Shown here: positions 1,554-36,963 of the stretch, one piece after another
How positions within the stretch are numbered: the first letter of the stretch is position 1
Layout: each line of letters starts with the position of its first letter
Source of the DNA: a virus
Virus record (IMG/VR): IMGVR_UViG_3300046045_000002
Span: 1 to 40,367 of that record
DNA length: 40,367 nt
Reading direction: 5' to 3' (one strand)
Notes under the pieces: generated by a model
Databases searched by the model: none
The model's input: only the letters and a program-made list of their open reading frames with translations
What the model was told of the DNA's origin: nothing
Program-made: the position numbers and the translations under genes

Positions 1554-1571
1554 GTAAACCCTCCCGCTCTA
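1554..1571 (+). promoter_or_regulatory. Early-gene motif copy 1 (GTAAACCCTCCCGCTCTA)
   Basis: 16 of 18 match to the GTAAACCCTTGCGCTCTA consensus. 36 nt upstream of the sigma-factor ATG. Confidence 0.55.
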
Positions 1572-1607
1572 GGGCGGGCGACAACGCGAACGAACGGAGC
1601 ACGACCC

Positions 1608-2426
1608 ATGATCGACCTCACCCCCGAGCAGATCGCCGCCGCTAAGGCGAACGACCTCGACGCCGTGACCGCTGTGGTTCAGGCCACGGAGGAAAGGGTT
1701 CAGCAGCTCGCCCGGCAGTACGCCACCACCGCTGGACGCGTGAACGCCGACCTCGCCGAGGAACTCGCGCAGATAGGCCGTATAGCCGTCTGGGAGTCCC
1801 TTAGCCGCTTCAACGGCCACGCGGTGGCCCAGTTCTTCACCTTCATAGACACGACGCTTAAGGGCGTCATGAGCGACGCTCGCAAGGTCGAGACCCGCCC
1901 GGGTGTGTCCCGCTCCGTCGCCGCCGATTTTGAGACAGCGCTCACGATGGCGGGCGGCGACCCGTACGACGCGGAGCGCGTAGCCGCTAGCCCCGCCATG
2001 GGCAAGCGCAAGATGAGCCCCGAAATGGCGTACGCCGCCCGGCTGTCGTGGCAAGGGGTCGAGTACCTCGACGCCCCGATGAACGGCGAGGGCGACGAAA
2101 CGATCACGCTCGGGGAGACGCTTGCCGATCGGGTCGGTCTTCCGGATGACCTGATCGAGGACGCCGATATCGAGTCGTTGCGCAAGCGCGAAATCCGCGA
2201 CCGGGTGCGCGGCATTGTCGGCCGCATGGGGGCACAGCGCCGGTACGTGTTGTCGGGTACCTACGGCCTCCCGTTCGCCCCGTTCTACGGCGAGGGACAC
2301 GATGCCGAAATGGCGGAAGACCTCGGGGTTCCGCGCGACCGCATCAAGACCGTTCGCAGCCTCGCTAAGACGGCATTCCGTAAGACGTGGCTTGCCGGTG
2401 CGCAGTCCGACGCCGACGCCGCCTAA
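1608..2426 (+). CDS. Sigma-70 family (ECF-like) RNA polymerase sigma factor
   Basis: 272 aa. Region-2-like IGRIAVWESLSRF and region-4 HTH-like EMAEDLGVPRDRIKTVRSLAKTAFRK. GGAG upstream of the ATG. Confidence 0.7.
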   Translation: MIDLTPEQIAAAKANDLDAVTAVVQATEERVQQLARQYATTAGRVNADLAEELAQIGRIAVWESLSRFNGHAVAQFFTFIDTTLKGVMSDARKVETRPGVSRSVAADFETALTMAGGDPYDAERVAASPAMGKRKMSPEMAYAARLSWQGVEYLDAPMNGEGDETITLGETLADRVGLPDDLIEDADIESLRKREIRDRVRGIVGRMGAQRRYVLSGTYGLPFAPFYGEGHDAEMAEDLGVPRDRIKTVRSLAKTAFRKTWLAGAQSDADAA

Positions 2427-2451
2427 TTCACCTTTCTGGGAGGGAACTGAA

Positions 2452-2661
2452 ATGCTTGCTACGCACAAGTTCGAAACCGCCTCGGGTCACACGGTCGAGG
2501 CCACGGCTACCGCAGCCGGATACGACTTCCACACGCGCAACGCGCAGGGCGAGACGATTTCGACCGTCGCCCATTCCCGCATTGCCGCTGAAATCCTGAT
2601 CGCGGAACTCTCGGCCGCGCAGCCTAAGCCCCGGGCGCGCCGTAAGGTGGCTGCAAAGTGA
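2452..2661 (+). CDS. Hypothetical protein (69 aa)
   Basis: ATG preceded by gggagggaactgaa; high GC3 in this frame. The longer upstream extension from 2215 overlaps the sigma gene. Confidence 0.6.
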   Translation: MLATHKFETASGHTVEATATAAGYDFHTRNAQGETISTVAHSRIAAEILIAELSAAQPKPRARRKVAAK

Positions 2662-2855
2662 GCCGCGCGCTTTCCTTCCTGATCGGGTTTGCCGTCGTCG
2701 CCGCTTTCGGCGTGACAGCGTGCGAGGACGGACCCGAGTGCACGCACTACGAGACGCAGACCACTTGGGCGTACGTCGTAGGACCGAAAGGCACCATGAC
2801 ACCCCACCTGATCGTGACCCAGGTCTGTACGCGCTACGCGTCGCCGACCCCGTAA
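2658..2855 (+). CDS. Small putative lipoprotein or membrane protein (65 aa)
   Basis: GTG start overlapping the previous stop. N-terminal hydrophobic signal with the lipobox-like sequence FGVTAC. Confidence 0.55.
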   Translation: MSRALSFLIGFAVVAAFGVTACEDGPECTHYETQTTWAYVVGPKGTMTPHLIVTQVCTRYASPTP

Positions 2856-2866
2856 GGCCGAGGACC

Positions 2867-2889
2867 CACCTACTAGTGACTAGTAGGTG
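2867..2889. repeat. 23-bp palindrome copy 2 (centre tga), extended to a 33-bp palindrome 2862..2894 followed by TTTTTT
   Basis: cacctactagtgactagtaggtg flanked by ggacc/ggtcc, with a T-run at 2895..2900. Looks like an intrinsic terminator. Confidence 0.95.
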
Positions 2890-2972
2890 GGTCCTTTTTT
2901 GCGTTTCATGACTCTGATCGCTTGCGAGCGGTGTTAGGCTGCCGCTACAAGCGGCAGACAGGGAGACGGAAG

Positions 2973-3536
2973 ATGATCACGAAGACCGAGCAGGGCAAGC
3001 GAGTCACCACCCCGTGGGGCGCTGGCACCGTCGAGTACCGCACTGACGGGTACGCGGGCGAGGTTGATTACTTCCTGGTCACCCTGGACGTTCCGGGCGA
3101 GTATGGCGTGACGCAGGTTCACGTGAAGCCCGAGGACATGCGGCCCGAGGTGCAGCCGGAACCGCGCACGATCCGGTTCGAGTCGACCGTGTGCGGACGC
3201 TGCAAGGGTGCCGGTCGGCGGAACGACGCCGGATGGGGCGCGAACCATCACGGAATCTGCTACCGGTGCCACGGCGCCGGGACGGTACTGACGGGCAACG
3301 GCTACCGGGCGTCACAGGCGTACAGCAAGATGCGTGATGAGCGCCTCGGCGCCACGTGGGGCGAACTCGCCGACGGCGAGGTTTTCCAGCACGACGGGAA
3401 GTACTACCGCAAGGGCGAACACGAGTGGCTGCGCCTCGCTGACGGGATCAAGGTTCACCGCCACAACGGCCCGGCAACCCGGAAGATGTGGAAGGAGATT
3501 GCCGCCCGCTACAAGGGCGCAACGCTGGCCTACTGA
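2973..3536 (+). CDS. Hypothetical protein with DnaJ-type CxxCxGxG zinc-finger repeats
   Basis: ATG preceded by gggagacggaag. Contains CGRCKGAG and CYRCHGAG. Confidence 0.6.
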   Translation: MITKTEQGKRVTTPWGAGTVEYRTDGYAGEVDYFLVTLDVPGEYGVTQVHVKPEDMRPEVQPEPRTIRFESTVCGRCKGAGRRNDAGWGANHHGICYRCHGAGTVLTGNGYRASQAYSKMRDERLGATWGELADGEVFQHDGKYYRKGEHEWLRLADGIKVHRHNGPATRKMWKEIAARYKGATLAY

Positions 3537-3549
3537 ACCGCCCGAGGGG

Positions 3550-3572
3550 CACCTACTAGTCGCTAGTAGGTG
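3550..3572. repeat. 23-bp palindrome copy 3 (centre tcg), extended by ggg/ccc (3547..3575) plus a T-rich run
   Basis: cacctactagtcgctagtaggtg followed by ccctttcttttt. Terminator-like. Confidence 0.95.
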
Positions 3573-4283: not shown

Positions 4284-4309
4284 GCGCTGCGCGGTAGGAC
4301 CCGTGCAGT

Positions 4310-5974: not shown

Positions 5975-7720
5975 GTGTACGCTCGGGGCATGACACCTTC
6001 AGTCCGCGCGGCCGTCGAGGTCGCCAGCGTTCACGGGGCGGCAGACGTAGCAGCTATCTACGTTAGGCAGTCCCGCAAGAAAGCTGACGGTTCCGAGGCA
6101 TCCCCCGCCGTTCAGGTCGAGGAATCCGAGAAAAAGGCTATCGCCCTCGACCTGCGGTCGCTGCCCGTCTACTCGGACGTCGGCATTTCCGGCTACGACC
6201 CGAACGCGGAGCGCCCGGCATTCGAGCGCATGCTCAAGGATGCTGCCGCCGGTAAGTTCTCGAAAATCATCGTGTACTACATGAGCCGATTCTCTCGGCA
6301 AGAGCCGCTAGAGGTGCTCGCAGTAGTCCGCGAACTCTGGTCGTACGGAATCACCATCATTTCCGTGACCGAGGGCGAATTCCGGCCCGACGACTTCGGC
6401 AGCCTCATTCACCTCCTGGCCCGACTGGAAGGAAACCACAAAGAGAGCAAGCTGAAATCAATCAACGTCAAGAAGACGAAACAAAAGGCGCGCAACCTCG
6501 GGGGCTACATGGGCGGACCACCGCCGTACGGGTTCCACACGCGCAAGGTGCTGAAAGACGGCGTGGCCATTCAGGAACTTGTGCCCGACTGGAAGGTGCA
6601 AGCACCGATCGTGCGTGACCTAGTCGCCTACATGCTGGAGCACCGCAACGACCCGGCAGACAAGTTCGGAAAGCACCCGGCGTCAATCCTCGGCGCGTGC
6701 GAATGGCTGAACGCCCACCCGCAAGCCAAACCCCGCCGTGGCGAGACGTGGAAGGACGCGAGCGTTACCCGACTGCTCATCGACCCCCGGCTAGCCGGAT
6801 TCGCCGCCGACTACGTGTACGAGAACGCAGCCGACGAGGAACGGCGCCGGAAGACACGTGCCTACGTAATCCAGCGGGACGACGACGGGCACGAGATCAT
6901 CGGAAACGAAGCAATCGTGACCCCCGCTGACTGGTACACGCTGCAAGAACACCTGCGCAGCCGGGCGAACAAAGGCCGTGCCTCGAACGGCGAATCACTG
7001 TTCGGCGGGTCGGGATTGGTCGACTGCGAGTGCGGGAAGCTGTTCACGTTCTTTTGGGCGCGCAAGACAGACGTCAAGAACTACCGGTGCCCGCGCACCC
7101 GTGTGGACGACGTCGGCCGGACGCACGACGGCGGGAACAGCATTTCGGCGCTGCACCTCGAAGACTGGGTTGCCCGACGCATCTTCGCGCTGATCACCAC
7201 ATCGGCGGGCGACGAGGAAACGCAAGAAATCCTGCTAGAGGCGACTAGGCGCTACGGACGGCGCGTCGAGGCACCGCAGACGGCGGGCGAGCGCACAGAG
7301 CTGGTCCGCGCACGTGCGGCCGACACACAAGCGCTGAACGACCTATACGACCGCGAAGAAGCGGGCGACTACGACGACCCGATCGGCCGAAAGCGGTTCC
7401 GTGACCGCAAAGACAAGATCTTGACCCGGATCAAGGCAGCCGAAAGCCGCCTAGCCGAACTGGACACGATCGAGACACCGGCGCTACCTATCGAGCAGTG
7501 GCTACCCGAGGACGCCGACGCCGACCCGATCGGCCCGGGGTCGTGGTGGCACGGCGCAAGCCTCGACCAGCGTCGGGACATGGTGGCGCTGTTCGTAGAG
7601 CGCATCACGGTCCATAAGGCGGCAAGCAAGGGCGGCAACTACAACGGCGTGGTGTTCAACGCTGGCAGCCGCGCGGAGATTACGTGGGCGAGGCCGCACG
7701 ACGACGAGGAAGACGCCTAG
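5975..7720 (+). CDS. int: Large serine recombinase (integrase)
   Basis: 581 aa. N-terminal resolvase-type motif AAIYVRQSRKK, zinc-ribbon-like CECGK...YRCPR and a C-terminal coiled-coil-like region. The start is either GTG 5975 or ATG 5990. Confidence 0.9.
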   Translation: MYARGMTPSVRAAVEVASVHGAADVAAIYVRQSRKKADGSEASPAVQVEESEKKAIALDLRSLPVYSDVGISGYDPNAERPAFERMLKDAAAGKFSKIIVYYMSRFSRQEPLEVLAVVRELWSYGITIISVTEGEFRPDDFGSLIHLLARLEGNHKESKLKSINVKKTKQKARNLGGYMGGPPPYGFHTRKVLKDGVAIQELVPDWKVQAPIVRDLVAYMLEHRNDPADKFGKHPASILGACEWLNAHPQAKPRRGETWKDASVTRLLIDPRLAGFAADYVYENAADEERRRKTRAYVIQRDDDGHEIIGNEAIVTPADWYTLQEHLRSRANKGRASNGESLFGGSGLVDCECGKLFTFFWARKTDVKNYRCPRTRVDDVGRTHDGGNSISALHLEDWVARRIFALITTSAGDEETQEILLEATRRYGRRVEAPQTAGERTELVRARAADTQALNDLYDREEAGDYDDPIGRKRFRDRKDKILTRIKAAESRLAELDTIETPALPIEQWLPEDADADPIGPGSWWHGASLDQRRDMVALFVERITVHKAASKGGNYNGVVFNAGSRAEITWARPHDDEEDA

Positions 7721-7779: not shown

Positions 7780-7872
7780 CGTGCGCTCAGACGGCCGTCT
7801 GTGGCTTTGGGGTGGTCGGCATAAGCGGAGCGCGACCGTCCGGTTACCTGGGGTGGTCAGACAGCGGGGGTG

Positions 7873-7966
7873 GGATGACGAATGACGAATTTGATAGTCA
7901 TCTGTGTATCCCTTAAGAGCCTCTATAGACATACCGAGATCGTTGTTCGTTTCGTCATTCGTCATC
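7873..7966. repeat. Inverted-arm element, copy A (94 nt)
   Basis: The arm GATGACGAATGACGAA (7874..7889) is perfectly complementary to TTCGTCATTCGTCATC (7951..7966). The 27-nt core gtatcccttaagagcctctatagacat (7906..7932) is identical to the core of copy B. Confidence 0.9.
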
Positions 7967-7968: not shown

Positions 7969-7986
7969 GTAAACCGTTGCGCTCTA
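7969..7986 (+). promoter_or_regulatory. Early-gene motif copy 2 (GTAAACCGTTGCGCTCTA), upstream of the tRNA cluster
   Basis: 2 nt after element A and 129 nt upstream of the first tRNA. Confidence 0.55.
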
Positions 7987-8115: not shown

Positions 8116-8188
8116 TGACGCGTAGCTCAGTCGGCAGAGCAAGGGATTGTTAATCCCTGGGTCGTTGGTTCGAGTCCAACCGTGTCAG
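8116..8188 (+). tRNA. tRNA-Asn (anticodon GTT)
   Basis: Cloverleaf folded by hand: acceptor tgacgcg/cgtgtca, anticodon stem aggga/tccct with loop ttGTTaa, T-arm gttgg-ttcgagt-ccaac. Confidence 0.85.
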
Positions 8189-8265
8189 CGGAGCGTACGA
8201 CGACCCCGTTTGAGGGGCTACGGGTGGCATGCACTCCCCAACCGCAGAGGCGGTTTCGTACGCAA

Positions 8266-8342
8266 CGGCATATAGCTCGAAGCGTGGTTAGAGCGCCGGT
8301 CTGATAAACCGGAGGTTCCAGGTTCGACCCCTGGTGTGCCGA
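8266..8342 (+). tRNA. tRNA-Ile (anticodon GAT)
   Basis: Acceptor cggcata/tgtgccg, anticodon stem ccggt/accgg with loop ctGATaa, T-arm ccagg-ttcgacc-cctgg. Confidence 0.85.
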
Positions 8343-8452
8343 CTGGTGGTAGCCCGTAAGGCCGTGACTGGCATGACTGGCACCACCCTGGGTGAAACCG
8401 GCCCTCACTGCCCGACTAGTCATCGGGTAAGCGGGCGGCGAGTAGCCCTCAA

Positions 8453-8529
8453 GCCGCGTTAGCCCAATCGGTAGAGGCGTCGGTCTTAGGAACCGAAGGT
8501 TAGGGGTTCGAATCCCTTACGCGGTACCA
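8453..8529 (+). tRNA. tRNA with anticodon TAG (Leu by anticodon), short 5-nt variable loop, encoded CCA
   Basis: Acceptor gccgcgt/acgcggt, anticodon stem tcggt/accga with loop ctTAGga (anticodon 8487..8489), T-arm agggg-ttcgaat-ccctt, discriminator A, 3-prime cca. Confidence 0.75.
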
Positions 8530-14053: not shown

Positions 14054-15415
14054 ATGGAGCACATTTTGAATAAGCGCGAAATGGTCGCCGACCTACTTGC
14101 GAAGCGTTCCGCTCTAAAGACCGAGCTTGACGGCCTTGTCGACGGCGCCACCGCCGAAAAGCGTTCTCTTTCCGAGGATGAGTCGGCCCGGTTCGACAGG
14201 GGCGAGGCGGAGATTCGGGCGTTCGATGAGCGCGTTAAGGAACTCGACTCGCAGATCAAGGCCGACGAGGCTGCGGCCGACATGGCTAAGCGCTATGCCG
14301 CGCCTCGCGTCGAGTCCGTCAAGGAACCGGAGATCTACCGTTCCGGCGTCGGTGGCCGTTCCTACTTCCGCGACCTACACCTAGCGCGAAGCAAGGGTGA
14401 CCGCGACGCTTCCGACCGGCTTGTTCGGAACAACCGGGGCCGTGCGGCCGACCTCGAACAGCGTGCTATCAGCGGCACTAATGGCGCCGGTGGAGAGTTC
14501 ATTCCGCCCCTATGGCTGGAGAACGAGTTCGTTAAGTACGCGCGTCCGGGTCGCATTACCGCGAACCTTTCGCCCTCCTTCCCGCTGCCCCCGGGTACTG
14601 ACTCGATCAACGTCCCGAAGGTTTCCGGCGGTACGGCGGTTGCTGTGCAGTCGACGCAGAACAGCGCCGTTCAGCAGACCGACCTAACCACGACCTCGAT
14701 TTCGTCCACTGTGACGACCGTTGCGGGTGGCCAGACGGTTTCCCTACAGCTGATCGAGCAGTCGCCTCTTAACATCGATGATGTTGTTCTGGCCGACCTT
14801 GCCGCCGACTATGCGCGGCAGCTCAACCTACTCGTGCTGAGTGGTTCGGGCACCTCGGGGCAGCCGACCGGCATCATGACCCTTGCGGGCACGAACGCTA
14901 TCGACTACAACCCCGCGACCGTCACCGCGCAGAACTTCTACAGCGCGGTTGCGAACGCCATTCAGACGGTTCACACGAACCGATTCCTCCCGCCGGACAC
15001 GATCATCATGCACCCGCGCCGGTGGGCGTGGCTGGTTGCTCAGGCCGACTCTTCCGGTCGTCCGCTGGTCGTTCCGCACGCCGGTGGTCCGTTCAACGCC
15101 ATGGCCGACCCGGGCGCCGTTGCCGCTCAGGGCTACGTCGGCACCATGCAGGGTCTGCCGGTCTACGTCGACGCGCTGATCCCGACCAACCTGACCGCCG
15201 ACACCGGCACCGCCGAGGATGCGGTGATTGTCGGCCGGTTCGCCGACCTCATGCTGTGGGAGTCGCACATTCGGGCCGAGGCGTTCGAGCAGACGTACTC
15301 GAACAACATGAGCGTTTTCATCCGGCTGTACAACTACATGTCGTTTCAGCCCGCCCGTTACCCGAAGTCGCTTTCTGTGATCACCGGTAAGGGTCTCCAG
15401 ACGCCGACGTTCTAA
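14054..15415 (+). CDS. Major capsid protein (HK97 fold with an N-terminal coiled-coil delta domain)
   Basis: 453 aa. Charged helical N-terminus followed by a capsid-like body. Position after the protease. Confidence 0.85.
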   Translation: MEHILNKREMVADLLAKRSALKTELDGLVDGATAEKRSLSEDESARFDRGEAEIRAFDERVKELDSQIKADEAAADMAKRYAAPRVESVKEPEIYRSGVGGRSYFRDLHLARSKGDRDASDRLVRNNRGRAADLEQRAISGTNGAGGEFIPPLWLENEFVKYARPGRITANLSPSFPLPPGTDSINVPKVSGGTAVAVQSTQNSAVQQTDLTTTSISSTVTTVAGGQTVSLQLIEQSPLNIDDVVLADLAADYARQLNLLVLSGSGTSGQPTGIMTLAGTNAIDYNPATVTAQNFYSAVANAIQTVHTNRFLPPDTIIMHPRRWAWLVAQADSSGRPLVVPHAGGPFNAMADPGAVAAQGYVGTMQGLPVYVDALIPTNLTADTGTAEDAVIVGRFADLMLWESHIRAEAFEQTYSNNMSVFIRLYNYMSFQPARYPKSLSVITGKGLQTPTF

Positions 15416-15424
15416 GCCCTTTAG

Positions 15425-26428: not shown

Positions 26429-27883
26429 ATGACTTACCCCGCCGGGGTCGACGTTTCCTCGTACCAGTCGGCTACCTACGACACGCGCGGCCTCGCGTTC
26501 GTGTTCGTCAAGGCCACCGAGGGAACCTCCTACGTGAACCCGCTGTACGGCGCTCAGACGGCCCATGGGCGCGCTGCGGGGCTTGTGGTCGGCCACTACC
26601 ACTACCTACACCCCGGAAGCGTCCAGGCGCAGGCTGACGCGTTCCTAGCGCATGCCGACGTGCGTACCGGCGAAGTGATCGCCCTCGACTGGGAAGCAAG
26701 CGGCAGCACACAGTCCGACCGGGACGCGTGGATTCGCTACGTCAAGGGCAAGCGACCGGCTAACCGGGTCGTGCTCTACTGCAACACCGATTTTTGGCTT
26801 CACGTCGACACAGAGTCGTACGCGGGTGACGGCCTATGGATTGCCGACCCGAACCACCCCGCCGGGCAGCCGGGCGTCACGCACACGTGGGTTTTTCACC
26901 AGTATTCGAGCGCCAACGGGGTTGATCACAACGTGGCGAATTTCGCGTCAACCGTTGCGCTCAAGGAATGGGCGGGGACACCCGCACAACAGAAGGGAAC
27001 GCCCGTGGGCGGAAGCGCAGCGATGATCTCGACGGCCGAAAAGGAAATCGGCTATCACGAGGGGCGCGATGCGTCCGGCAACTGGGACAACATCCAAAAG
27101 TATTCCGAACAGGTTCCGGGCCTCGCGTGGTCCGACGGGCAGCCGTGGTGCATGACGTTCCAGTCGTGGTGCGCCATGATTTCCGGCAATGCCGCCCTGT
27201 ACCCGCGTACCGCTAGCTGTGTCGAGGGCGTGTCGTGGTTCAAGGCCGAGGGTCGATGGTCGGATTACCCCGCTGTCGGCGCGCTCGCTTTCTACGGCAC
27301 CGACGGAGGTTCGCACGTCGGCCTAGTCGCCGGTTTCGACGCCGACAACATTTACACGGTCGAGGGCAACACGAACGACAACGGGTCGGCCGAGGGCGAC
27401 GGCGTATACGGCAAGGAACGACAGCGCCGTATCTCGTACGTGTACGGCTATGGGTACCCGAAGTTTGCCGAGGGCATCGTGTCGGCCGACCCCGCGTACG
27501 GCGGCACTAAGAGCGCGGGCGTGCAGTACATCCCCGGCAAGCCCGTGCCGAGGCCGACACCGGCCCCCACACCGGCGCCCAAGCCTGCACCTAAGCCCGT
27601 GGTGAGCCTCGCAAACGTCGTAGCCGCCGCGCAGCAGGACCCGCAGGCTACGCAGGGGCACGAGTCCCACCCGGCGGACGTTAAGCCCGTAGAAGCTGCC
27701 CTAGCGGCCGAGGGGCTACTAGACAAGCGCTATGCCTACGACGGGTCGTTCGGCTCGCTGTCGGTCAAGGCGTACGCCGAATGGCAGAAGAAGTGCGGAT
27801 TCTCGGGCGCCGACGCGAACGGCATTCCCGGGCGTAAGACCCTCGCCGCCCTAGGCGCTAAGCACGGGTTCACGGTGGCCTAA
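26429..27883 (+). CDS. Endolysin: GH25 muramidase, CHAP-like amidase/peptidase and a peptidoglycan-binding domain
   Basis: GVDVSSYQ...FVFVKATEG (GH25), EKEIGYHEG...QPWCMTFQSW (CHAP-like Cys) and the C-terminal YDGSFGSLSVKAYAEWQKKCG (PG_binding_1-like). Confidence 0.85.
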   Translation: MTYPAGVDVSSYQSATYDTRGLAFVFVKATEGTSYVNPLYGAQTAHGRAAGLVVGHYHYLHPGSVQAQADAFLAHADVRTGEVIALDWEASGSTQSDRDAWIRYVKGKRPANRVVLYCNTDFWLHVDTESYAGDGLWIADPNHPAGQPGVTHTWVFHQYSSANGVDHNVANFASTVALKEWAGTPAQQKGTPVGGSAAMISTAEKEIGYHEGRDASGNWDNIQKYSEQVPGLAWSDGQPWCMTFQSWCAMISGNAALYPRTASCVEGVSWFKAEGRWSDYPAVGALAFYGTDGGSHVGLVAGFDADNIYTVEGNTNDNGSAEGDGVYGKERQRRISYVYGYGYPKFAEGIVSADPAYGGTKSAGVQYIPGKPVPRPTPAPTPAPKPAPKPVVSLANVVAAAQQDPQATQGHESHPADVKPVEAALAAEGLLDKRYAYDGSFGSLSVKAYAEWQKKCGFSGADANGIPGRKTLAALGAKHGFTVA

Positions 27884-28119: not shown

Positions 28120-28275
28120 GTGCACACAGCGGCGTACATCGCTCAACAGGTGTGGCCGAACCTCGCCGCTGACGTGATTTGGGTCCCGCTGGTGTGGGCG
28201 TGGCATCACACGCACTTCCGGCGGACCCTACAGCGGGAAATCGACCAACTACACGAACGATTGAGAGAGAAGTAA
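28120..28275 (+). CDS. Small membrane protein (51 aa)
   Basis: GTG start directly after the previous stop. TM-like VWPNLAADVIWVPLVWAW. Below the 60-aa cutoff of the ORF track. Confidence 0.4.
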   Translation: MHTAAYIAQQVWPNLAADVIWVPLVWAWHHTHFRRTLQREIDQLHERLREK

Positions 28276-28586
28276 TGGCAGTTTCTCCGAAGGTAAGCGC
28301 GTCGACCGTTGGCGCAGCCGCCTCGACCGTCGTTGTTCAGGTGCTCGCTAAGCACCTCTTTCACGGCGCCGTACCGTCTGACGTCCTCGGCCTGATCGAG
28401 GGCGCCGTAACGGCCGGTGTCACTTTCGCCTCGGGCTATTTCGTCGCGCACGCGCCCAAAACTGTTGCCGAGGTCGAGACGGCCGTAAAGGACGTAGCCG
28501 AGGCAATCCCGTTCACGCAGATGCCGCAGCTACCGCTAGAGAACCCGCAGCCGACTGCACAGCCGCTACCGCCCGCCGGGGCGTAA
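28275..28586 (+). CDS. Holin-like protein (103 aa, two TM segments) with a C-terminal LPLENPQP motif
   Basis: TAATG overlap with the previous gene. Hydrophobic segments VGAAASTVVVQVLA and GAVTAGVTFASGYFVA. Confidence 0.55.
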   Translation: MAVSPKVSASTVGAAASTVVVQVLAKHLFHGAVPSDVLGLIEGAVTAGVTFASGYFVAHAPKTVAEVETAVKDVAEAIPFTQMPQLPLENPQPTAQPLPPAGA

Positions 28587-28600
28587 GCCGTTGCGCTCCC
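28583..28600 (+). promoter_or_regulatory. Early-gene motif copy 3 (GTAAGCCGTTGCGCTCCC)
   Basis: Its TAA is the holin-like gene stop. Only 8 nt upstream of the dNMP kinase ATG. Confidence 0.45.
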
Positions 28601-28633
28601 AATAGGGCATGACCCAAAACATTGCCCTATTGG
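28599..28633. promoter_or_regulatory. Perfect 11-bp inverted repeat bracketing the start codon at 28609
   Basis: ccaatagggca (28599..28609) / tgccctattgg (28623..28633) with a 13-nt spacer. Confidence 0.4.
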
Positions 28634-29148
28634 GCCGTGCGCGTTCCGGAAAAGACACTGTGGCTGCCCGGCTGGTCGAGCGGCACGGATTCACCCGTGT
28701 CGCTTTCGCCGACCCGCTTAAGCGAATGGCCGAGACGGTAAGCCCGTTTGTGCCGACCTCGCCCGGCGTGGTCGTACAACTCGCCCCGCTGATTCGTGAC
28801 GTCGGGTGGGAGTACGCGAAAGACCGGTACCCCGAGGTGCGCCGGTTGCTCCAATGGATTGGGCACACCGTGCGCGACCTCGACCCCGAATTCTGGGTAC
28901 GCGTAGCACTGCACAGCGTCGAGGCTGCACCCGGGCCCGTGGTCGTGACCGACGTCCGGTACCCCAATGAGGCCGAGGCGCTGCGCGCGCGAGGTTTTCG
29001 CATGGTTCGGGTGGTCCGCCCGGGTCAAGATTTGGTCAGTTCTCACGTGAGTGAGACGGCCCTCGATCGGTACCCGCCCGACCTGCGCGTGTTGAACGAC
29101 GGAACCCTAGATGACCTGCGCGAACGCGCCGACGGCCTAGCGGCCTAG
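28609..29148 (+). CDS. Deoxynucleoside monophosphate kinase
   Basis: P-loop LLGRARSGKDT and the FADPLKRMA motif. 179 aa. Confidence 0.75.
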   Translation: MTQNIALLGRARSGKDTVAARLVERHGFTRVAFADPLKRMAETVSPFVPTSPGVVVQLAPLIRDVGWEYAKDRYPEVRRLLQWIGHTVRDLDPEFWVRVALHSVEAAPGPVVVTDVRYPNEAEALRARGFRMVRVVRPGQDLVSSHVSETALDRYPPDLRVLNDGTLDDLRERADGLAA

Positions 29149-29153
29149 CCCTT

Positions 29154-29193
29154 GCCCCGTGCCAGCCCTAACCGGCGGGTGCGGGGCATTTTT
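29154..29193 (+). terminator. Stem-loop plus T-run after the dNMP kinase gene
   Basis: gccccg (29154..29159) / cggggc (29182..29187) followed by attttt. Confidence 0.45.
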
Positions 29194-29202
29194 GCGTTCG
29201 GG

Positions 29203-29225
29203 CACCTACTAGTGACTAGTAGGTG
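29203..29225. repeat. 23-bp palindrome copy 11 (centre tga)
   Basis: Exact arms. Ends 67 nt upstream of ATG 29293. Confidence 0.95.
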
Positions 29226-29292
29226 GTGGTGCGCGTGCCGCGCCGTGTGCTTAGCTACTCCCACAACAACAGAGAACAACGAAGGGGCGGAC

Positions 29293-31140
29293 ATGAACAT
29301 TCAGCTTGGGCGGGGCGGCAAGGTCCACTACGCGGGCGAGCCGGACGGTTACATGCCCGCCCCGAAGTGCGGCGGCAACCGCGCTGTTGAGGGCTACAGG
29401 GCCGTTAAGGCGGAAGTCGACTGTAAGAACTGCCTCAAGATCATGGCCGCCGAGGCGGCTGCGCAGGAAGCGCCCGAGGTCGAGGCGCCCACCGAGGACA
29501 AGGGAGAGACCGTGACCGTTACCGAGGTTCCCGCCGACACGGAGTACGACGCCGCTTTCGAGCGTGGTCGTTCGCTGGGCAAGGATCACGCCGAGGCGCA
29601 CGACTACGCGGCCGAGGTAGTGAGGAACGCGCGGATTCGCGCCGAGCAGGCCACCGAAAAGCTTCAGTACCGCACCATGCACCCCGTGACCGGCAAGCGT
29701 GTCCGTATTCCCTCGCCTAAGCCCGCTAAGTGGGCAGCGTGGGAGAACGGCAACCTTTTCGGCCTCGCCGACGTGGAAACCGTGGCCGAGGCTATTTCCT
29801 CGCTCCCCAAGGGGCGGGAATTCAACGTCACGGCTCTTTTCCCGATTTCCCCCCGCGATGCCGCACAGTCTGGTATCATCGCGCCCGATGTTCCGGTTAG
29901 CGCCGGAACCGCCACCACAGAGGAGAACGAAATGCCCCCTCGCAAGCGCGCTGCCGCTAAGCCCGCTAAGACGGCCGAGGTCGCCCCCGAGGCGCCCGAG
30001 GACACTGCCCCCGCCGACGCTGCCCCGATCGAGGGCGACACGCCCGCCGAGGACACCGCCGACGCTATCCAGCGGGCTAAGGACATCATCGCGCAGGTTC
30101 TCGCAGCCGCCGAGGTCGGCGAGTCGGCCGACCCGAACCGCATCAAGGAACTCGCCGAATCGGCGGAGACAATCATCGGTGAGCTGCCCATGGAGCACCG
30201 CACGGGCCTGCGCGCTGCGCTGGAGGAGGCTAAGCGGGGCGAGTCCTACACGGCCGAGGGTCACGGTAAGGACGGAAAGAAGAAGACGGCGTCTAAGGCC
30301 GTCGCTAAGAAGACGGCTGCGGCTGCGGCTACCAAGGAAACGCAGGACTACAAGCAAGCCATTCCCGACGCCGAAAAGGTCGTCGCCGACGTAGCCGCCG
30401 CGTACGCAAAGGGCGTCGAGTTCGAGCGCGAGAACTCCAACGCTGCCCGCTCGATCGCCGAAAAGGTGCTCGCCGCCCGTCTGTTCCTTTCCGACAAGGA
30501 TGGACACCCGGACTACAACGGCAAGTCGAACGCGGCAAAGGTGCTGTCGGGTGTCGTGTACGCCGCCGCTGGTTCCGGGTTCGAGCGCACCGAGGAAAAC
30601 GAGGACGCCCTAGACCGTCTGGTGAAGTCGGTGCAGAACCTGCGGAATGACGTTCTCGTGAAGTACGTCCGCAACATCGGCAAGGAAGACGCTCACCGGT
30701 TCTTCCCCAAGGCATTCGCGGCCGACCCCGAGGCCGACCCGACCGAGGCCATTCAGAAGTTCTACAAGATTCCGGAGCGCAGCACGTTCGAGATTCAGGC
30801 CGAAAAGCGCCGTCTCGAAAGGGCGCAGCGTAAGGCGCTTGCTGCGGGCAAGGAAAAGGAAGCTAAGGAACTCGGCGAGGCGATCAAGACCGTCGGAAAG
30901 ACCGAGGCCGAGGGCGGCGAGGGTGAGGGCGAGGCTGCCGCCGCGCCTAAGACGGCCGCCGAAAAGCGGAGGGCTAAGCACCTCGCTGCGATCGAGGCCG
31001 CAACGGAAAAGTTCGCCGACCTCGAAAAGGAAATCGAAAAGATCGATGCGGAGGAGGCCGCCGAACTAGTGGCCAAGCTGGAAGCGTTCAACGGCATGTC
31101 GGCGACGCTCACGGCCATGTTGAAGGGTAAGACCGCGTAG
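29293..31140 (+). CDS. Large acidic Ala/Glu/Lys-rich protein of unknown function (615 aa)
   Basis: ATG preceded by gaaggggcggac. N-terminal Cys motif PKCGG...CKNC, AKKT/PAKT basic tracts and long low-complexity acidic stretches. Confidence 0.7.
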   Translation: MNIQLGRGGKVHYAGEPDGYMPAPKCGGNRAVEGYRAVKAEVDCKNCLKIMAAEAAAQEAPEVEAPTEDKGETVTVTEVPADTEYDAAFERGRSLGKDHAEAHDYAAEVVRNARIRAEQATEKLQYRTMHPVTGKRVRIPSPKPAKWAAWENGNLFGLADVETVAEAISSLPKGREFNVTALFPISPRDAAQSGIIAPDVPVSAGTATTEENEMPPRKRAAAKPAKTAEVAPEAPEDTAPADAAPIEGDTPAEDTADAIQRAKDIIAQVLAAAEVGESADPNRIKELAESAETIIGELPMEHRTGLRAALEEAKRGESYTAEGHGKDGKKKTASKAVAKKTAAAAATKETQDYKQAIPDAEKVVADVAAAYAKGVEFERENSNAARSIAEKVLAARLFLSDKDGHPDYNGKSNAAKVLSGVVYAAAGSGFERTEENEDALDRLVKSVQNLRNDVLVKYVRNIGKEDAHRFFPKAFAADPEADPTEAIQKFYKIPERSTFEIQAEKRRLERAQRKALAAGKEKEAKELGEAIKTVGKTEAEGGEGEGEAAAAPKTAAEKRRAKHLAAIEAATEKFADLEKEIEKIDAEEAAELVAKLEAFNGMSATLTAMLKGKTA

Positions 31141-32078: not shown

Positions 32079-32118
32079 ATGCCCGCAGACGGGCGCGTGT
32101 GGCCTCGACAGCGGGCAG

Positions 32119-32211
32119 GATGACGAGTGACGACTTTTACATGAACCTCGGTATCCCTTAAGAGCCTCTATAGACATTCCTGAACGACTACCAATTTCGT
32201 CATTCGTCATC
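32119..32211. repeat. Inverted-arm element, copy B (93 nt)
   Basis: Arms GATGACGAGTGACGAC (32120..32135) and TTCGTCATTCGTCATC (32196..32211). The 27-nt core at 32152..32178 is identical to copy A. Spacer lengths are the same as in A (16 and 17 nt) but the spacer sequences differ. Confidence 0.9.
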
Positions 32212-32223: not shown

Positions 32224-32241
32224 GTAAACCCTTGCGCTCCC
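32224..32241 (+). promoter_or_regulatory. Early-gene motif copy 4 (GTAAACCCTTGCGCTCCC)
   Basis: 12 nt after element B and 37 nt upstream of ATG 32279. Confidence 0.55.
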
Positions 32242-32278: not shown

Positions 32279-33151
32279 ATGGCCACCGTCCGCACCGTCC
32301 ACCGAGGCGGAAGCCGGTTCTATGTCCATCCGGACACGCCAGAGATCAAGGTTCCCGGCGTCACGTCCGTAATCGGCATGCTGCCTAAGCCGTTCCTCGC
32401 CCCGTGGAACGCAAAGCTAGTCGCCGAACTCGCCGTAGACTCCCTGCCCTTTGTCGAGCAGATGGCACAGCGCGACCGGCAAGGGGCCGTCGACTTCCTT
32501 AAGGGTGCCGCCCGCCGGTACACAAAGGTGCGCGCCGAAATCGGGTCCGCCGCTCACGATCTGTTCGAGCGCATGATCCGGGGCGAGGGCGACCTCACCG
32601 AGCGCGATTACCGGGGCCGGTTCCGCGTGAGCGTTCACCCCGACCTCGAACCGTACCGGGCCAACTTCGCTGAGTTCCTGGAAGTCGTGAACCCGGAACT
32701 TGTCGGCGCCGAAGATGTGGCGTGGTCCGATGAGCACGAGTACGCGGGGTCGTTCGACGCCATGCTTCGTGTGTGGCTGGACGACGACAACAACCCGACG
32801 CCGGATCGCTCGGGCACGCCGGTTCTGCTTATGGCCGACTGGAAGACGTCTAAGGACATTCACGCCGAGGTCGCCCTACAGATGGCGGCTTACGCCTACG
32901 CCGACCGGATCATCAAGCCGGACGGCACCAGTGTGCCCATGCCGGAATTCGACGGCGCTGCGGTGCTGCACATCACGCCCGATCAGTGGACGTTCAAGCC
33001 CGTCCGTATCGAGCGCGACGTGTTCGACTTCTTCCTTTCGCTGCGGCACGTCTTCAACTGGGACCGCGACGTGTCTAAGACCGTCGTAGGCCGTGCCATT
33101 GCGCGCAGCGCGGGGCGGCTGGTCACCGGTACACAGCGGCGTGCGCGATGA
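32279..33151 (+). CDS. RecB-family PD-(D/E)XK exonuclease
   Basis: 290 aa. GSFDAML, LLMADWKTSKD and QMAAYAYA (QxxxY) motifs. No Cas4-type Cys cluster. Confidence 0.75.
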   Translation: MATVRTVHRGGSRFYVHPDTPEIKVPGVTSVIGMLPKPFLAPWNAKLVAELAVDSLPFVEQMAQRDRQGAVDFLKGAARRYTKVRAEIGSAAHDLFERMIRGEGDLTERDYRGRFRVSVHPDLEPYRANFAEFLEVVNPELVGAEDVAWSDEHEYAGSFDAMLRVWLDDDNNPTPDRSGTPVLLMADWKTSKDIHAEVALQMAAYAYADRIIKPDGTSVPMPEFDGAAVLHITPDQWTFKPVRIERDVFDFFLSLRHVFNWDRDVSKTVVGRAIARSAGRLVTGTQRRAR

Positions 33152-33303
33152 CGCGCGAGGACGCGCTCAAGGAAGCGCAGGAACTCGTCAAGGCCATGGC
33201 CACGAACAGCCGGGGCTTTATGGATGGCGCGTCGTTCGAGTCGCGCGTGTCGGCAACGATCCGAATTGCCGAATTCCTTATTGCCGAGGGGGACGGCGAA
33301 TGA
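33148..33303 (+). CDS. Hypothetical protein (51 aa)
   Basis: ATGA overlap at both ends. Below the cutoff of the ORF track. Confidence 0.4.
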   Translation: MTREDALKEAQELVKAMATNSRGFMDGASFESRVSATIRIAEFLIAEGDGE

Positions 33304-33521
33304 CCGCCGTTCGCGTGGTCCAGACGAAACCGGCGTTCAAGTACCCCGCCGGTAAGCACTGGGGGCCGTACAAGCACCTTGCCGACGCCCTAGAGCGCGT
33401 GAAGCTACTGCGGCGTCATGGGGGCGACGGAAAGGTTCAGGCGGGGGAGTGGAATCCCTGCGTGATGACCCGCCCCGAGGTCGAGTGGGACGTGTCCGAG
33501 GACGACGCCGACGGCGCGTAA
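33300..33521 (+). CDS. Hypothetical protein (73 aa)
   Basis: ATG overlapping the previous stop. The ORF ends inside motif copy 5. Confidence 0.5.
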   Translation: MTAVRVVQTKPAFKYPAGKHWGPYKHLADALERVKLLRRHGGDGKVQAGEWNPCVMTRPEVEWDVSEDDADGA

Positions 33522-33535
33522 ACCCTTGCGCTCTA
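33518..33535 (+). promoter_or_regulatory. Early-gene motif copy 5 (GTAAACCCTTGCGCTCTA, consensus)
   Basis: Its TAA is the stop of the upstream gene. 41 nt upstream of ATG 33577. Confidence 0.55.
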
Positions 33536-33576
33536 CCCACCTTGCACCACCCCAACTAGCCGAGGAGAGAACGGCA

Positions 33577-33960
33577 ATGGAGCGAATCAAGGTCACCGAG
33601 GCGCAGGTTAAGACGGCGCTGATCGAGGCGGTTGCCGAAAAGGGCGACGACTACGTGTACACGAACCCGGACGGCGAGTCGGCCACGGGTGCGGCTGCCT
33701 CTTGCTACTACGTGCACGGCGACAAGCCCGGCTGTCTGGTCGGCAACGCGCTTCACCGCCTCGGGGTTCCGCTGTCGGCGCTTGAGGCGCATGAGATGCG
33801 CGGGGCGTACAGCGTGGCTAAGGAACTGATCGACGTCACGGACAGCAGCAGCACTTTCACCATGCTGGCCGAAGTGCAGGACTCGCAGGACAACGGCGCC
33901 ATGTGGGGTGATGCCCTCGCCTACGCCGGGGTTGTGACCCGGGTCGGCGACGACGCGTAA
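33577..33960 (+). CDS. Hypothetical protein (127 aa)
   Basis: ATG preceded by gaggagagaacggca. Confidence 0.6.
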   Translation: MERIKVTEAQVKTALIEAVAEKGDDYVYTNPDGESATGAAASCYYVHGDKPGCLVGNALHRLGVPLSALEAHEMRGAYSVAKELIDVTDSSSTFTMLAEVQDSQDNGAMWGDALAYAGVVTRVGDDA

Positions 33961-33974
33961 ACCGCTGCGCTCTA
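33957..33974 (+). promoter_or_regulatory. Early-gene motif copy 6 (GTAAACCGCTGCGCTCTA)
   Basis: Its TAA is the stop of the upstream gene. 73 nt upstream of ATG 34048, with the hairpin gagggggcgggaaag/ctttcccgccctc in between. Confidence 0.5.
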
Positions 33975-34047: not shown

Positions 34048-34746
34048 ATGGCGCTGCGCATTTTCGACACCGACCCGGACGCTAAGCCTAAGCCGCGCAC
34101 GAACTACAACGATGACTATGTTGCCCGCTGGTACATGGGGCGGCAGGTCGACAACCAGCCCGAGGCGCTGAGCGAGTGGCGCGTGATGACCGGCGACCGT
34201 GAGATCGGGCAGGCTATCGCGCAGCTTTTCGGCGGACAGCCGGTCGAGACGGATTCCAGCGCGGACAAGTTCATCGAGGTTCTCACCACGTCGGCAAAGG
34301 TGCCGGTGATCCTCGACGGCCCTAAGTCCATCACTTCGGACATGAAGCTGTGGAACCGGGGCAAGCTGGTTCACCACTGTGACGGCGTCGACTTCCTGTC
34401 GCACAACGACGAAAAGCGTGTTGGCACGGCGTGCGGCTGCCCGCAGCTTTTCGCCGAGCGTAAGCAGGCTGCGCGCGACTACATGGGCCCCTCGCCCTCG
34501 ATCAACGTGCGTTTCCGCCTCGCCGATGATCCCGACCTCGGCGTGTGCCACTTCCAGACGACGTCATGGACGCTGGCCGAGGTGCTGCACGAGCACGACG
34601 ACGCGCTTCGGCGAATCGGTGGCGAGGCGTACGCGGAACTGTCTATCGAACTGGTCGAGTACACGACTAAGAAGGGTCGGCACGTCGAGTACCTCAAGCC
34701 GGTAATCCGTGTCGTCAAGGCGTGGCAAGACGCCATAGCCGACTAG
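34048..34746 (+). CDS. Hypothetical protein with a Cys/His cluster (232 aa); possible recombination partner of the exonuclease
   Basis: ATG preceded by ggagagact. HHCDG...GTACGCP. The function is inferred from position only. Confidence 0.35.
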   Translation: MALRIFDTDPDAKPKPRTNYNDDYVARWYMGRQVDNQPEALSEWRVMTGDREIGQAIAQLFGGQPVETDSSADKFIEVLTTSAKVPVILDGPKSITSDMKLWNRGKLVHHCDGVDFLSHNDEKRVGTACGCPQLFAERKQAARDYMGPSPSINVRFRLADDPDLGVCHFQTTSWTLAEVLHEHDDALRRIGGEAYAELSIELVEYTTKKGRHVEYLKPVIRVVKAWQDAIAD

Positions 34747-34780
34747 TCGCCGACCACCACCAAAACGAGGGAGATACCGC

Positions 34781-34993: not shown

Positions 34994-34996
34994 CCC

Positions 34997-35176: not shown

Positions 35177-35186
35177 GAGAGAGCAC

Positions 35187-35504: not shown

Positions 35505-35776
35505 TGGGGAAGCGCGGTGTCGTCACCGACTATGCGGGCGAGGAACTGTACCCGGGTGATCTGATCGCCTACGCGGCCCGACAGGGCAACCGGGTGCGCA
35601 TGACGGATGCGACGGTCGAGCGGGTGACCGCTAAGAACATCGGTGGTCGACTGGTCCCGATGCTTAAGGTTCTGCCGACCGGCATCGAATCGGGTTTCAC
35701 TGCCCGCCGGAAGATCCGGGCACAGTGGATCGGTGCTGAACACGCGCGGCTTATCCAGCCGGGCGAGGAAGGCTAA
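35504..35776 (+). CDS. Hypothetical protein (90 aa)
   Basis: TAATG overlap with the previous gene. Confidence 0.55.
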   Translation: MGKRGVVTDYAGEELYPGDLIAYAARQGNRVRMTDATVERVTAKNIGGRLVPMLKVLPTGIESGFTARRKIRAQWIGAEHARLIQPGEEG

Positions 35777-35786
35777 GCCAAGGGGA

Positions 35787-35820
35787 GGGGTCGGAGCGCT
35801 CACGCGTTCCGGCCCCTTTT
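35787..35820 (+). terminator. Intrinsic terminator
   Basis: ggggtcgga (35787..35795) / tccggcccc (35808..35816; one G-U pair) followed by tttt. Confidence 0.6.
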
Positions 35821-35827
35821 CGTGTTT

Positions 35828-35850
35828 CACCTACTAGTCACTAGTAGGTG
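35828..35850. repeat. 23-bp palindrome copy 13 (centre tca)
   Basis: Exact arms. Ends 13 nt before the GTG at 35864. Confidence 0.95.
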
Positions 35851-35863
35851 GGGAAGGGTCGGC

Positions 35864-36040
35864 GTGGTCCGACAGATCACAGACAAGACAGCCCCTGCCA
35901 TGGGGGACGTGAGGCGCATGCAGACGGGCGACACGTTGCTAGTGCACGATGCTGCCCGCAAGCGCGCCGACTGGTCGAGGTTTCAGGATGCAATCCGCCA
36001 TGCCGTCGCGCGTGGCGCCGAGGTTAGGTGGGTCCATTGA
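35864..36040 (+). CDS. Hypothetical protein (58 aa from GTG 35864)
   Basis: The longer ORF from 35822 would start inside the palindrome. The start is uncertain (an ATG at 35900 is also possible). Confidence 0.4.
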   Translation: MVRQITDKTAPAMGDVRRMQTGDTLLVHDAARKRADWSRFQDAIRHAVARGAEVRWVH

Positions 36041-36123
36041 TGGGCGTAGATATCGGTATCGCTGTCGTGTATTTCATCGTCGGCACCATCTTCGGATGGC
36101 ACATCGCGCGAGACGGTAGGTGA
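36040..36123 (+). CDS. Possible 27-aa hydrophobic peptide
   Basis: MGVDIGIAVVYFIVGTIFGWHIARDGR. ATGA and GTGA overlaps with both neighbours. Confidence 0.25.
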   Translation: MGVDIGIAVVYFIVGTIFGWHIARDGR

Positions 36124-36554
36124 GTGGCCTACGGGCGTGCCGCCAATGTGGGCGCACTCGACCCGCCGAGGAATTCATAGCCGGGAAGGCTAAGCGGAAC
36201 GCGTCGAATTGTGCGACGTGCCGCCGGAAGAATGCCGCCGAGCACCGCCGGAAGTACTACGCGTCGTTGCCGCCGGATAAGCGGCACGAACTCACGCACC
36301 GCCGACGTGCCGAGGGGTACGGCGTAGAGCACGTGGCATACAGCCGTACGGCGATCATGCGCCGTTGGCGGAACGCGTGCTGTTACTGCAATGGGGTGGC
36401 TACTCACCTCGACCACGTGCACCCGCTGTCCAAGGGTGGCGCCGACCGGGAATCCAACATCGTTCCCGCGTGTCGGTCGTGCAACCTTTCCAAGGGTGCA
36501 AAGTCGCTAGCGGATTGGGCCGACACGTTCGGGCCGGAAGATCCGCCGTTCTAG
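36120..36554 (+). CDS. HNH endonuclease (144 aa)
   Basis: HLDHVHPLSKGGADRESNIVPACRSCNLSKG. N-terminal CRQCG...CATC zinc ribbon. Confidence 0.85.
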   Translation: MSGLRACRQCGRTRPAEEFIAGKAKRNASNCATCRRKNAAEHRRKYYASLPPDKRHELTHRRRAEGYGVEHVAYSRTAIMRRWRNACCYCNGVATHLDHVHPLSKGGADRESNIVPACRSCNLSKGAKSLADWADTFGPEDPPF

Positions 36555-36565
36555 GAAGGCTGACA

Positions 36566-36949
36566 GTGCGCCCTGATTGGGATTCGTACTTTCTCGGCAT
36601 TGCGCGCGCTGTGGCTGCCCGTGCCGACTGCACCCGCCGACAGGTTGGCGCCGTGGTGGTCGACACGGGGAACCGTGTTCTCTCGGTGGGGTACAACGGT
36701 GCCCCGCCGGGAGTTCCCGGATGCCTCACAGCGGGTGCGTGCCCTCGGGGCCGACTGAGTAAGGCCGACGTCCCCTCGGGAACCGGCGATTACGACCATT
36801 GCGTAAGCGTGCACGCCGAGGCTAACGCGCTGTTGTATTCCGACCCAGTGCGCCGGATTGACGGCACGCTGTATTGCACTGATGAGCCGTGCCCCGGCTG
36901 CCGGAAGCTGATCGAGGGCGCTGGAATTGCCCGGGTGGTGGTCGCGTAA
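36566..36949 (+). CDS. dCMP deaminase
   Basis: VHAEANAL and EPCPGC zinc-binding motifs. GTG preceded by ggaaggctgaca. Confidence 0.85.
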   Translation: MRPDWDSYFLGIARAVAARADCTRRQVGAVVVDTGNRVLSVGYNGAPPGVPGCLTAGACPRGRLSKADVPSGTGDYDHCVSVHAEANALLYSDPVRRIDGTLYCTDEPCPGCRKLIEGAGIARVVVA

Positions 36950-36963
36950 ACCCTTGCGCTCTA
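36946..36963 (+). promoter_or_regulatory. Early-gene motif copy 7 (GTAAACCCTTGCGCTCTA, consensus)
   Basis: Its TAA is the deaminase stop. 23 nt upstream of ATG 36987. Confidence 0.55.

Follow-up and report, generated by a model that had tools for sequence, protein, structure and literature searches.

Background

Phage sigma factors with promoter classes of their own are known from Bacillus phage SPO1 (gp28 and gp33/34), T4 (gp55) and phiEco32 (gp36), and in T4 gp55, and probably also in phiEco32 gp36, recognition goes through one block next to the transcription start, with no -35 element. Closer to the subject of this study, Ingham et al. are said to have mapped, in 1993, multiple conserved non-canonical early promoters in a region of the Streptomyces phage phiC31, reportedly active only in lytic growth (for this family see also Smith et al. 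1999), and the phiC31 genome carries a same-strand repeat, the 18-mer GGGTTGCCGACTCCCTTA in 11 copies, whose sites we take to be these promoters; the GenBank records AJ006589 and X76288 hold no promoter features. Here we analyse an 18-nucleotide (nt) motif repeated along one strand of a viral stretch of 40,367 nt, the IMG/VR record IMGVR_UViG_3300046045_000002, called the window in what follows (the whole stretch at its full length), which, judged by its sequence, is a distant relative of phiC31. We think that this motif is most likely a new member of the promoter family already known from phiC31, with a diverged sequence matched to a diverged sigma factor.

Results

The motif, (C)GTAAACCNTTGCGCTCTA, has eight copies on the + strand and none on the - strand when the whole window is searched with up to 4 mismatches, and seven of the eight lie at gene boundaries. 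The copies, and the gene whose product we propose as their reader, are the following (ORF, open reading frame):

1554..1571, + strand: motif copy GTAAACCCTCCCGCTCTA, ending 36 nt before the ATG (1608) of the sigma gene; relatives have a copy at the same place
1608..2426, + strand: gene of a phage sigma factor (272 amino acids, sigma2-sigma3-sigma4), proposed reader of the motif
7969..7986, + strand: motif copy GTAAACCGTTGCGCTCTA, ending 129 nt before tRNA-Asn (8116)
26947..26964, + strand: motif copy GTCAACCGTTGCGCTCAA, within the endolysin ORF 26429-27883, at the linker that joins the two endolysin domains
28583..28600, + strand: motif copy GTAAGCCGTTGCGCTCCC, with the dNMP kinase ATG (28609) 8 nt after it; the TAA of the motif closes ORF 28179-28586
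32224..32241, + strand: motif copy GTAAACCCTTGCGCTCCC, followed after 37 nt by the exonuclease gene (32279); phiC31 counterpart at 21760, before gp1
33518..33535, + strand: motif copy, exact consensus, 41 nt before the ATG (33577) of a phrog_572 protein; its TAA is the stop of ORF 33093-33521
33957..33974, + strand: motif copy GTAAACCGCTGCGCTCTA, 73 nt before the ATG (34048) of the Gp3-like gene; its TAA is the stop of ORF 33526-33960; phiC31 counterpart at 23032, before gp3
36946..36963, + strand: motif copy, exact consensus, separated from the primase ATG (36987) by 23 nt; the dCMP deaminase ORF 36365-36949 terminates at the TAA of the motif; phiC31 counterpart at 25054, before gp9a

Seven of these copies had been listed in the initial annotation of the window, and all seven are real and on the same strand; the eighth, at 26947, had been missed. 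A search with GTAAACCCTTGCGCTCTA at up to 3 mismatches returns seven matches, all on the + strand (1554, 7969, 26947, 32224, 33518, 33957 and 36946), for a chance expectation of 0.01 in dinucleotide-preserving shuffles, none of 100 of which reached seven. The copy at 28583, which the annotation was right to include, departs at 4 positions from the 18-mer used there and at 3 from the refined consensus CGTAAACCCTTGCGCTCT. The motif extends at least 1 nt further in the 5' direction, where a C directly precedes all eight copies and GC is found in six of them. The distances given earlier (8 to 73 nt to a start codon, 129 nt to the first tRNA) agree with those measured here, as does the use of the TAA in four copies as the stop codon of the upstream gene. 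That no copy precedes a structural gene is literally true, but the copy at 7969 heads a same-strand run of tRNAs, terminase and structural genes; its counterparts are found at 40567 in phiC31 (before tRNA-Thr), at 40528/40547 in Heather (before tRNA-Lys) and at 41684 in Shaeky (before a tRNA array). If the copies of the window are to be called "early", it is by analogy, given that one of them heads this tRNA/late-gene run. The annotation had also found no sigma-70-type -35/-10 pair, and our scan of one region (1000-1700, around the sigma-gene copy) gave none either; nothing is conserved upstream of the block (as we call the 18-mer and its variants), and the sole downstream signal is a weak preference for purines 6-10 nt beyond it. 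Rfam has no match at the motif copies.

The window motif has no match in phiC31 at up to 3 mismatches, and the phiC31 consensus likewise fails in the window. Seven of the 11 phiC31 copies are nevertheless situated at junctions matched in the window, before gp52, gp1, gp2, gp3, gp9a and gp12, and 134 nt before tRNA-Thr. As the copies occupy orthologous gene junctions, the motif is the positional counterpart of the phiC31 repeat. In register, the window consensus is identical to that of phiC31 at 6 of 18 positions (1, 7, 8, 14, 17 and 18) and to that of Heather at 13 of 18. The annotation had invoked phiC31 as a precedent while leaving aside whether the sequences are related; they have their positions in the genome, their length and these six nucleotides in common, and intermediate variants connect them (see below). 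In both phages a block of about 18-21 bp is present in many copies along the direction of transcription and is unlike sigma-70 promoters, two copies have a long common upstream extension, and a gp12-type sigma gene is present. The two phages differ in the number of copies (11 in phiC31, eight in the window), in that the polymerase gene and the genes that follow sigma lack a copy in the window, and in the sigma protein itself, which has 272 amino acids in the window and 396 in phiC31 (gp12), only the N-terminal 180 residues or so being common, with 37% identity.

Further relatives were gathered with the sigma protein as probe. In the phage collection 18 distinct phages were matched, and the genomes of four of them (phiC31, Heather, Shaeky and Nesbitt) were compared; together with 8 IMG/VR contigs and about 38 prophages of Streptomyces and Kitasatospora, this makes about 50 loci in all. 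Variants were searched with up to 3 mismatches in 18, a looser threshold (14/20) having produced GC-rich noise and opposite-strand matches. Most of these loci, about 40 phages and prophages, have their own 18-mer variant about 45-60 nt before the sigma start, repeated 2-14 times on the same strand and almost never on the opposite one. The variants include GTAAGCCCTTGCGCTCAA, from a locus whose sigma is 80% identical to that of the window, GGCAACCCTTGCGCTCCC (sigma about 58% identical), GGAAGTCCTTGCGCTCCA (about 56%), GGAATCCCCTCCGCTCCA of Heather, which has 14 copies (51%), and GGGTTGCCGACTCCCTTA of phiC31 (37%). When 180 distinct copies are pooled in register, the block has sharp edges at positions 1 and 18, with no information upstream, and positions G1, G2, A4, C7, C8, C14, Y15, C16 and A18 are nearly universal. 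Overlap with stop codons is confined to GTAA variants. In a scan of viral contigs with the exact variant, several copies were found only in the two closest relatives; the other matches, all single, are probably due to chance.

The strongest evidence on the identity of the reader comes from the manner in which the block varies among these loci. The main tests were (partial) Mantel tests on the 32 loci with at least three copies, about 10 single-copy prophages being left out. The distance between blocks correlates with the distance between sigma proteins (r = 0.79) and, to a lesser extent, with that between the adjacent polymerases (r = 0.45); the former correlation holds when the polymerase is controlled (partial r = 0.72, p = 2e-4), whereas the latter vanishes when sigma is controlled (partial r = -0.04). 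The correlation with sigma is 0.70 if the sigma gene's own copy is omitted and 0.74-0.75 after thinning to 28 or 20 lineages; with the polymerase controlled, the full and thinned sets thus range over 0.72-0.75 (p about 3e-4). To represent the repressor, whose gene is outside most loci, we took the palindromes described below as putative operators, which were recognizable in 29 of the 32 loci: block and sigma remain correlated at 0.77 (p = 2e-4, 29 loci) when the palindrome is controlled, whereas block and palindrome are not correlated with sigma controlled (partial r = 0.08, p = 0.2). Individual loci illustrate the same point. L014 and L047 have polymerases that are 84% identical, sigmas that are 33% identical, and different blocks; phiC31 and L027/L030/L044 have nearly the same palindrome and different blocks, and L015 and L024 have the same block and different palindromes. 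In these comparisons the block sequence thus follows the sigma gene, and neither the polymerase nor the operator palindromes. Co-variation with sigma2 is seen for each half of the block (partial r = 0.52 and 0.69), and for neither half is there any with sigma4 when sigma2 is controlled; promoter specificity appears to reside in the sigma2/sigma3 part of the protein.

The product of 1608-2426 scores 22.3 bits against Pfam Sigma70_r2 (PF04542), just under the cut-off of 24; this domain is present in most of its homologues. The protein matches PHROG 15865 ("RNA polymerase sigma factor") at 1.7e-46. Among PDB sequences, a profile built from 27 homologues finds regions 2 and 4 of RpoD, SigA, RpoS and FliA, with a best E-value of 4e-4 (RpoD region 4). 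In the AlphaFold2 model (mean pLDDT 82) sigma2 is made of four helices and sigma3 of a small bundle of helices; residues 154-165 are a disordered linker, and the C-terminal part has the helix-turn-helix of sigma4. Each of the 50 PDB matches listed by Foldseek is either the chain of a sigma factor or a complex of RNA polymerase with sigma (SigB, SigA, sigmaS, sigma32), over about 245-285 columns. By its predicted structure, this protein is a sigma2-sigma3-sigma4 factor of the sigma-70 family, and we infer from the co-variation that it reads the motif.

The distances between block and coding sequences are informative on the geometry of the putative promoters. Start codons of long ORFs cluster after the block at +6/+7 (GTG, 22 cases) and +8 (ATG, 7 cases), and none is found at +9 to +12; those at +8 include the dNMP kinase of the window, whose nucleotide-binding loop is at residues 9-16, and two annotated genes of Heather. 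Ribosome-binding sites start as early as +9 after the block, as in the primase gene of the window, where the site begins 9 nt after the copy at 36946. In the pooled copies purines dominate positions 24-25, followed by a T-poor stretch. Because of these start codons, ribosome-binding sites and purine signal, we estimate that transcription would begin about 7-9 nt beyond the block, which would itself lie at about -26 to -9; some transcripts would therefore be leaderless, or nearly so, that of the dNMP kinase included.

The copy in front of the sigma gene has a peculiarity. Its 3' half forms, with the sequence just downstream, an inverted repeat, CCCGC-tctagg-GCGGG (1563..1578, + strand), seen in the window at this copy only. 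Stems of at least five Watson-Crick pairs are found in 28 of 50 sigma-gene copies, as opposed to 21 of the remaining 159 copies and 16% of shuffled sequences, and among the loci L001-L051 many lineages keep the inverted repeat although the paired sequences differ (CTGCCGCTCC/GGAGCGGCAG, CTTGCGC/GCGCAAG, CGACTTC/GAAGTCG and CTCACTCG/CGAGTGAG). With the geometry proposed above, it would span about -15 to +5, and an autoregulation of the sigma gene is a reasonable guess for its role. We also considered a hairpin common to all copies and rejected it, only the sigma-gene copies exceeding shuffled controls.

The sigma gene is separated from the polymerase gene by a non-coding gap of about 510 nt (1096-1607), less G+C-rich than the rest of the window, which contains one of the palindromes described below and a CCAAAAACAGG element that several relatives also have; in phiC31, Heather, Shaeky and Nesbitt the gap at this place is of similar length (about 440-480 nt).

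Two copies of the motif, those at 7969 and 32224, share an upstream extension of about 100 nt (7868..7966 and 32113..32211, + strand, repeat family D7), made of TGACGAA heptads, two in direct and two in inverted orientation, that surround a 25-nt core, ATCCCTTAAGAGCCTCTATAGACAT, identical in both; before the copy at 7969 the direct heptads lie at 7874-7889 and the inverted ones at 7951-7966. The equivalent pair in phiC31 (family D5) is located at 21649 and 40428, before the copies at 21760 and 40567. The extension might give the two main operons an additional region of control.

The copy at 26947 falls, in the 484-amino-acid endolysin ORF, between a GH25 domain and the C-terminal endolysin domain, and an in-frame ATG (27023) is found just where the C-terminal homology to endolysins (phrog_9589) begins. 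An internal promoter at this copy might give rise to a shorter form of the endolysin.

Genomic context

The two ends of the window (1-127 and 40241-40367) are an exact 127-bp direct repeat; as the first and last 127 bases are identical, the assembly is circular and the complete element has about 40.2 kb. Its G+C content is 63.5%. At the nucleotide level its relatives among sequenced phages are the phiC31-like Streptomyces phages only, in the primase gene only, with 73-74% identity. Genes were assigned by Pfam and PHROG scans, and those with phiC31 counterparts are, in order along the circle:

28609-29148: dNMP kinase (phiC31 gp52)
29152-31140: homologue of phiC31 repressor c, PF25746 (phiC31 c)
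32279-33151: exonuclease (phiC31 gp1)
34048-34746: Gp3-like recombination directionality factor (phiC31 gp3)
36365-36949: dCMP deaminase (phiC31 gp20, located elsewhere in phiC31)
36987-39425: primase (phiC31 gp9a)
39488 to 1095, spanning the assembly junction: DNA polymerase (phiC31 gp11)
1608-2426, + strand: sigma-like protein (phiC31 gp12)
5975-7720: serine integrase (phiC31 int)
8116-8529: tRNAs (phiC31 tRNA-Thr)
from about 9856: terminase and structural genes (phiC31 gp31 onwards)

From the dNMP kinase through the tRNAs to the terminase this gene order is that of phiC31, the dCMP deaminase excepted. In the tRNA cluster Rfam recognizes a third tRNA (8266-8342, 58.9 bits) between two found by ARAGORN. 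Imperfect direct repeats (families D3 and D8) with irregular spacings of 18-90 nt occupy 15587-15905, inside two overlapping ORFs, 15425-15949 on the + strand and 14828-15619 on the - strand.

A second family of repeats in the window is the 23-bp palindrome CACCTACTAGTCACTAGTAGGTG, with 14 copies over the genome, mostly intergenic:

1155-1177, and near 2865, 3548, 8529, 9834, 14021, 17327, 19685, 22314, 25841, 29201, 31183, 35826 and 39439: palindrome CACCTACTAGTCACTAGTAGGTG

This family parallels the repeated palindrome CCTACTCACGTGAGTAGG of phiC31, which we take to be the conserved inverted repeats bound by the repressor of that phage, and the CACCTACTAGTCACTAGTAGGTG palindromes are probably repressor operators. 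The type of palindrome varies between relatives independently of the promoter block.

Discussion

We think it probable, on the evidence of these sequence comparisons, that the eight copies of the motif are phage-specific promoters, that they occupy about -26 to -9, and that the sigma factor of 1608-2426 reads them together with the host core RNA polymerase. This is the possibility that the initial annotation had put forward, a non-sigma-70 promoter class perhaps recognized by the phage sigma, and it has gained from the matching junctions in phiC31, from the co-variation with sigma and from the sigma fold. The block of 18 bp (about 21 bp in the window phage) would be recognized by host core polymerase carrying the phage sigma, with no use of a -35 element, and would drive the dNMP kinase/repressor, the exonuclease, two small units, the primase/polymerase, the sigma gene and the tRNA/late-gene run; by its own copy of the block the sigma gene would be positively autoregulated. 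The transcript starts at the copies, the sigma as their reader and the timing of expression are all predictions of this kind.

Several points weigh against this interpretation. The equation of the phiC31 repeat with the mapped promoters is an assumption. About 10 prophages, whose sigmas are 43-49% identical, show the sigma-gene copy only, within 20 kb and at the strict threshold. The copy at 26947 sits within a coding region. Mantel tests on related sequences can overstate significance, and shared ancestry was partly corrected for; the contrast between sigma and both controls (polymerase and palindrome) is large. The sigma gene would need some initial transcription independent of its own product, and a scan for sigma-70 promoters and terminators around this gene gave nothing. 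Finally, a block that reaches -26 without a -35 element is unusual for a sigma factor with a sigma4 domain, and the GGAAT-like 5' end of the block, taken with a weak GTGA 6-8 nt after it, would also fit a -35/-10 pair with a spacing of 18 nt.

This last point can be developed into an alternative that keeps the same promoters and the same sigma and changes the geometry: sigma4 would read the GGAAT-like beginning of the block (GTAAA here) as a -35 element, the rest would be a conserved spacer, and a GTGA-like -10 element 6-8 nt after the block would direct transcription from about 15-19 nt after it. The pooled copies do show a weak G/A, G/A, T/C signal at positions 24-26, and GTGA is the 4-mer most often seen at positions 25-26; the protein has a helix-turn-helix of the sigma4 type, and GGAAT-N18-GT resembles the promoters of some Streptomyces extracytoplasmic function (ECF) sigma factors, such as SigR. 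We nevertheless regard this arrangement as unlikely, since the most conserved positions (C14, Y15 and C16) would then sit in the spacer, the 5' half of the block co-varies with sigma2 and not with sigma4, and the ribosome-binding sites at +9 and the starts at +8 (the dNMP kinase and two Heather genes) would be excluded from the transcript. A sigma-54 (-24/-12) promoter was also considered and dropped, the GG-to-GC spacing being a misfit and the phage protein belonging to the sigma-70 family. It is conceivable, too, that the copies are promoters with another reader, either a host sigma with a phage activator or a phage protein whose gene stays linked to that of sigma. The only other partners compared here are the polymerase and the operator palindromes, and the link between protein and site is drawn from sequences; yet the co-variation is specifically with sigma2/sigma3 and the protein has a sigma fold, not that of an activator, and we hold a different reader to be very improbable. 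A host sigma acting alone is disfavoured because the block differs among prophages of the same host genus.

If the copies are not promoters, they could be binding sites of a phage regulator that blocks or modulates transcription, like the stoperators of cluster A mycobacteriophages, an option that the initial annotation had left open. They are asymmetric, all oriented along transcription and placed in short intergenic gaps, and four overlap a stop codon. But this overlap is seen only in GTAA variants, the phage has a separate family of 14 palindromes and a homologue of the phiC31 repressor c, and the block is independent of the type of palindrome, with discordant pairs both ways. As the motif does not follow the operator type, this explanation has lost ground, and we give it very little credit. 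The motif could also act in RNA, as a processing site or, much as do the start-associated sequences of cluster K mycobacteriophages, as a signal for translation, which would agree with its strict same-strand bias and its position before genes; moreover, nuclease S1 mapping, which is said to have been used on phiC31, does not separate processed from primary ends. This seems to us highly improbable: the copies stand at anything between 8 and 73 nt from a start codon, one of them in front of a tRNA instead, there is no common secondary structure (the hairpin potential of the copies other than those of sigma genes equals that of shuffled sequence) and no Rfam match, and one would not expect an RNA motif to co-vary with a sigma protein. 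Promoters read by the phage sigma therefore remain our preferred explanation.

It is tempting to extend this explanation to the whole group. Phages and prophages of the phiC31 type would then possess a family of sigma factors whose promoter is one uninterrupted stretch of 18 bp (about -26 to -9), read through sigma2/sigma3 and lacking a -35 element, with at least 10 co-diversified specificities across Streptomyces and Kitasatospora prophages forming mutually exclusive pairs, and the inverted repeat maintained at the sigma promoter would suggest a special autoregulation. We propose this broader scheme tentatively, as a possibility on which we would not yet wager.

For the window phage, eight putative transcription units can now be assigned and their transcript starts predicted. 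For the phiC31 group, our results provide computational evidence that the gp12-type protein is the specificity factor of the long-known non-canonical promoters, and they indicate that each lineage of the phiC31 type has its own matched pair of sigma and promoter. Such pairs could be of use as independent expression switches in Streptomyces engineering, and they represent a natural series in which to study how the DNA specificity of a sigma factor changes. The finding is useful but unsurprising in kind, because phage sigma factors with their own promoters are well established.

Comparison with other phage systems

The stoperators of the cluster A mycobacteriophages (L5, Bxb1) resemble the motif of the window in being asymmetric, in one orientation, in short intergenic gaps and sometimes over stop codons; they differ in that they have 13 bp and are bound by the immunity repressor, whereas the block of the window follows the sigma gene and a separate family of palindromic operators is present. 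The start-associated sequences of cluster K have a fixed short distance to the start codon, which is not the case here. The likeness with the sigma factors of SPO1, T4 and phiEco32 is that there a phage sigma redirects the host core polymerase to phage-only promoters, as we propose for the window. Unlike these phages, the window represents a temperate actinophage, its block is much longer (18 bp) and would reach about -26, the sigma4-like domain has been kept, the sigma gene carries a promoter of its own type, and the promoters would serve replication-type genes and not only middle or late ones.

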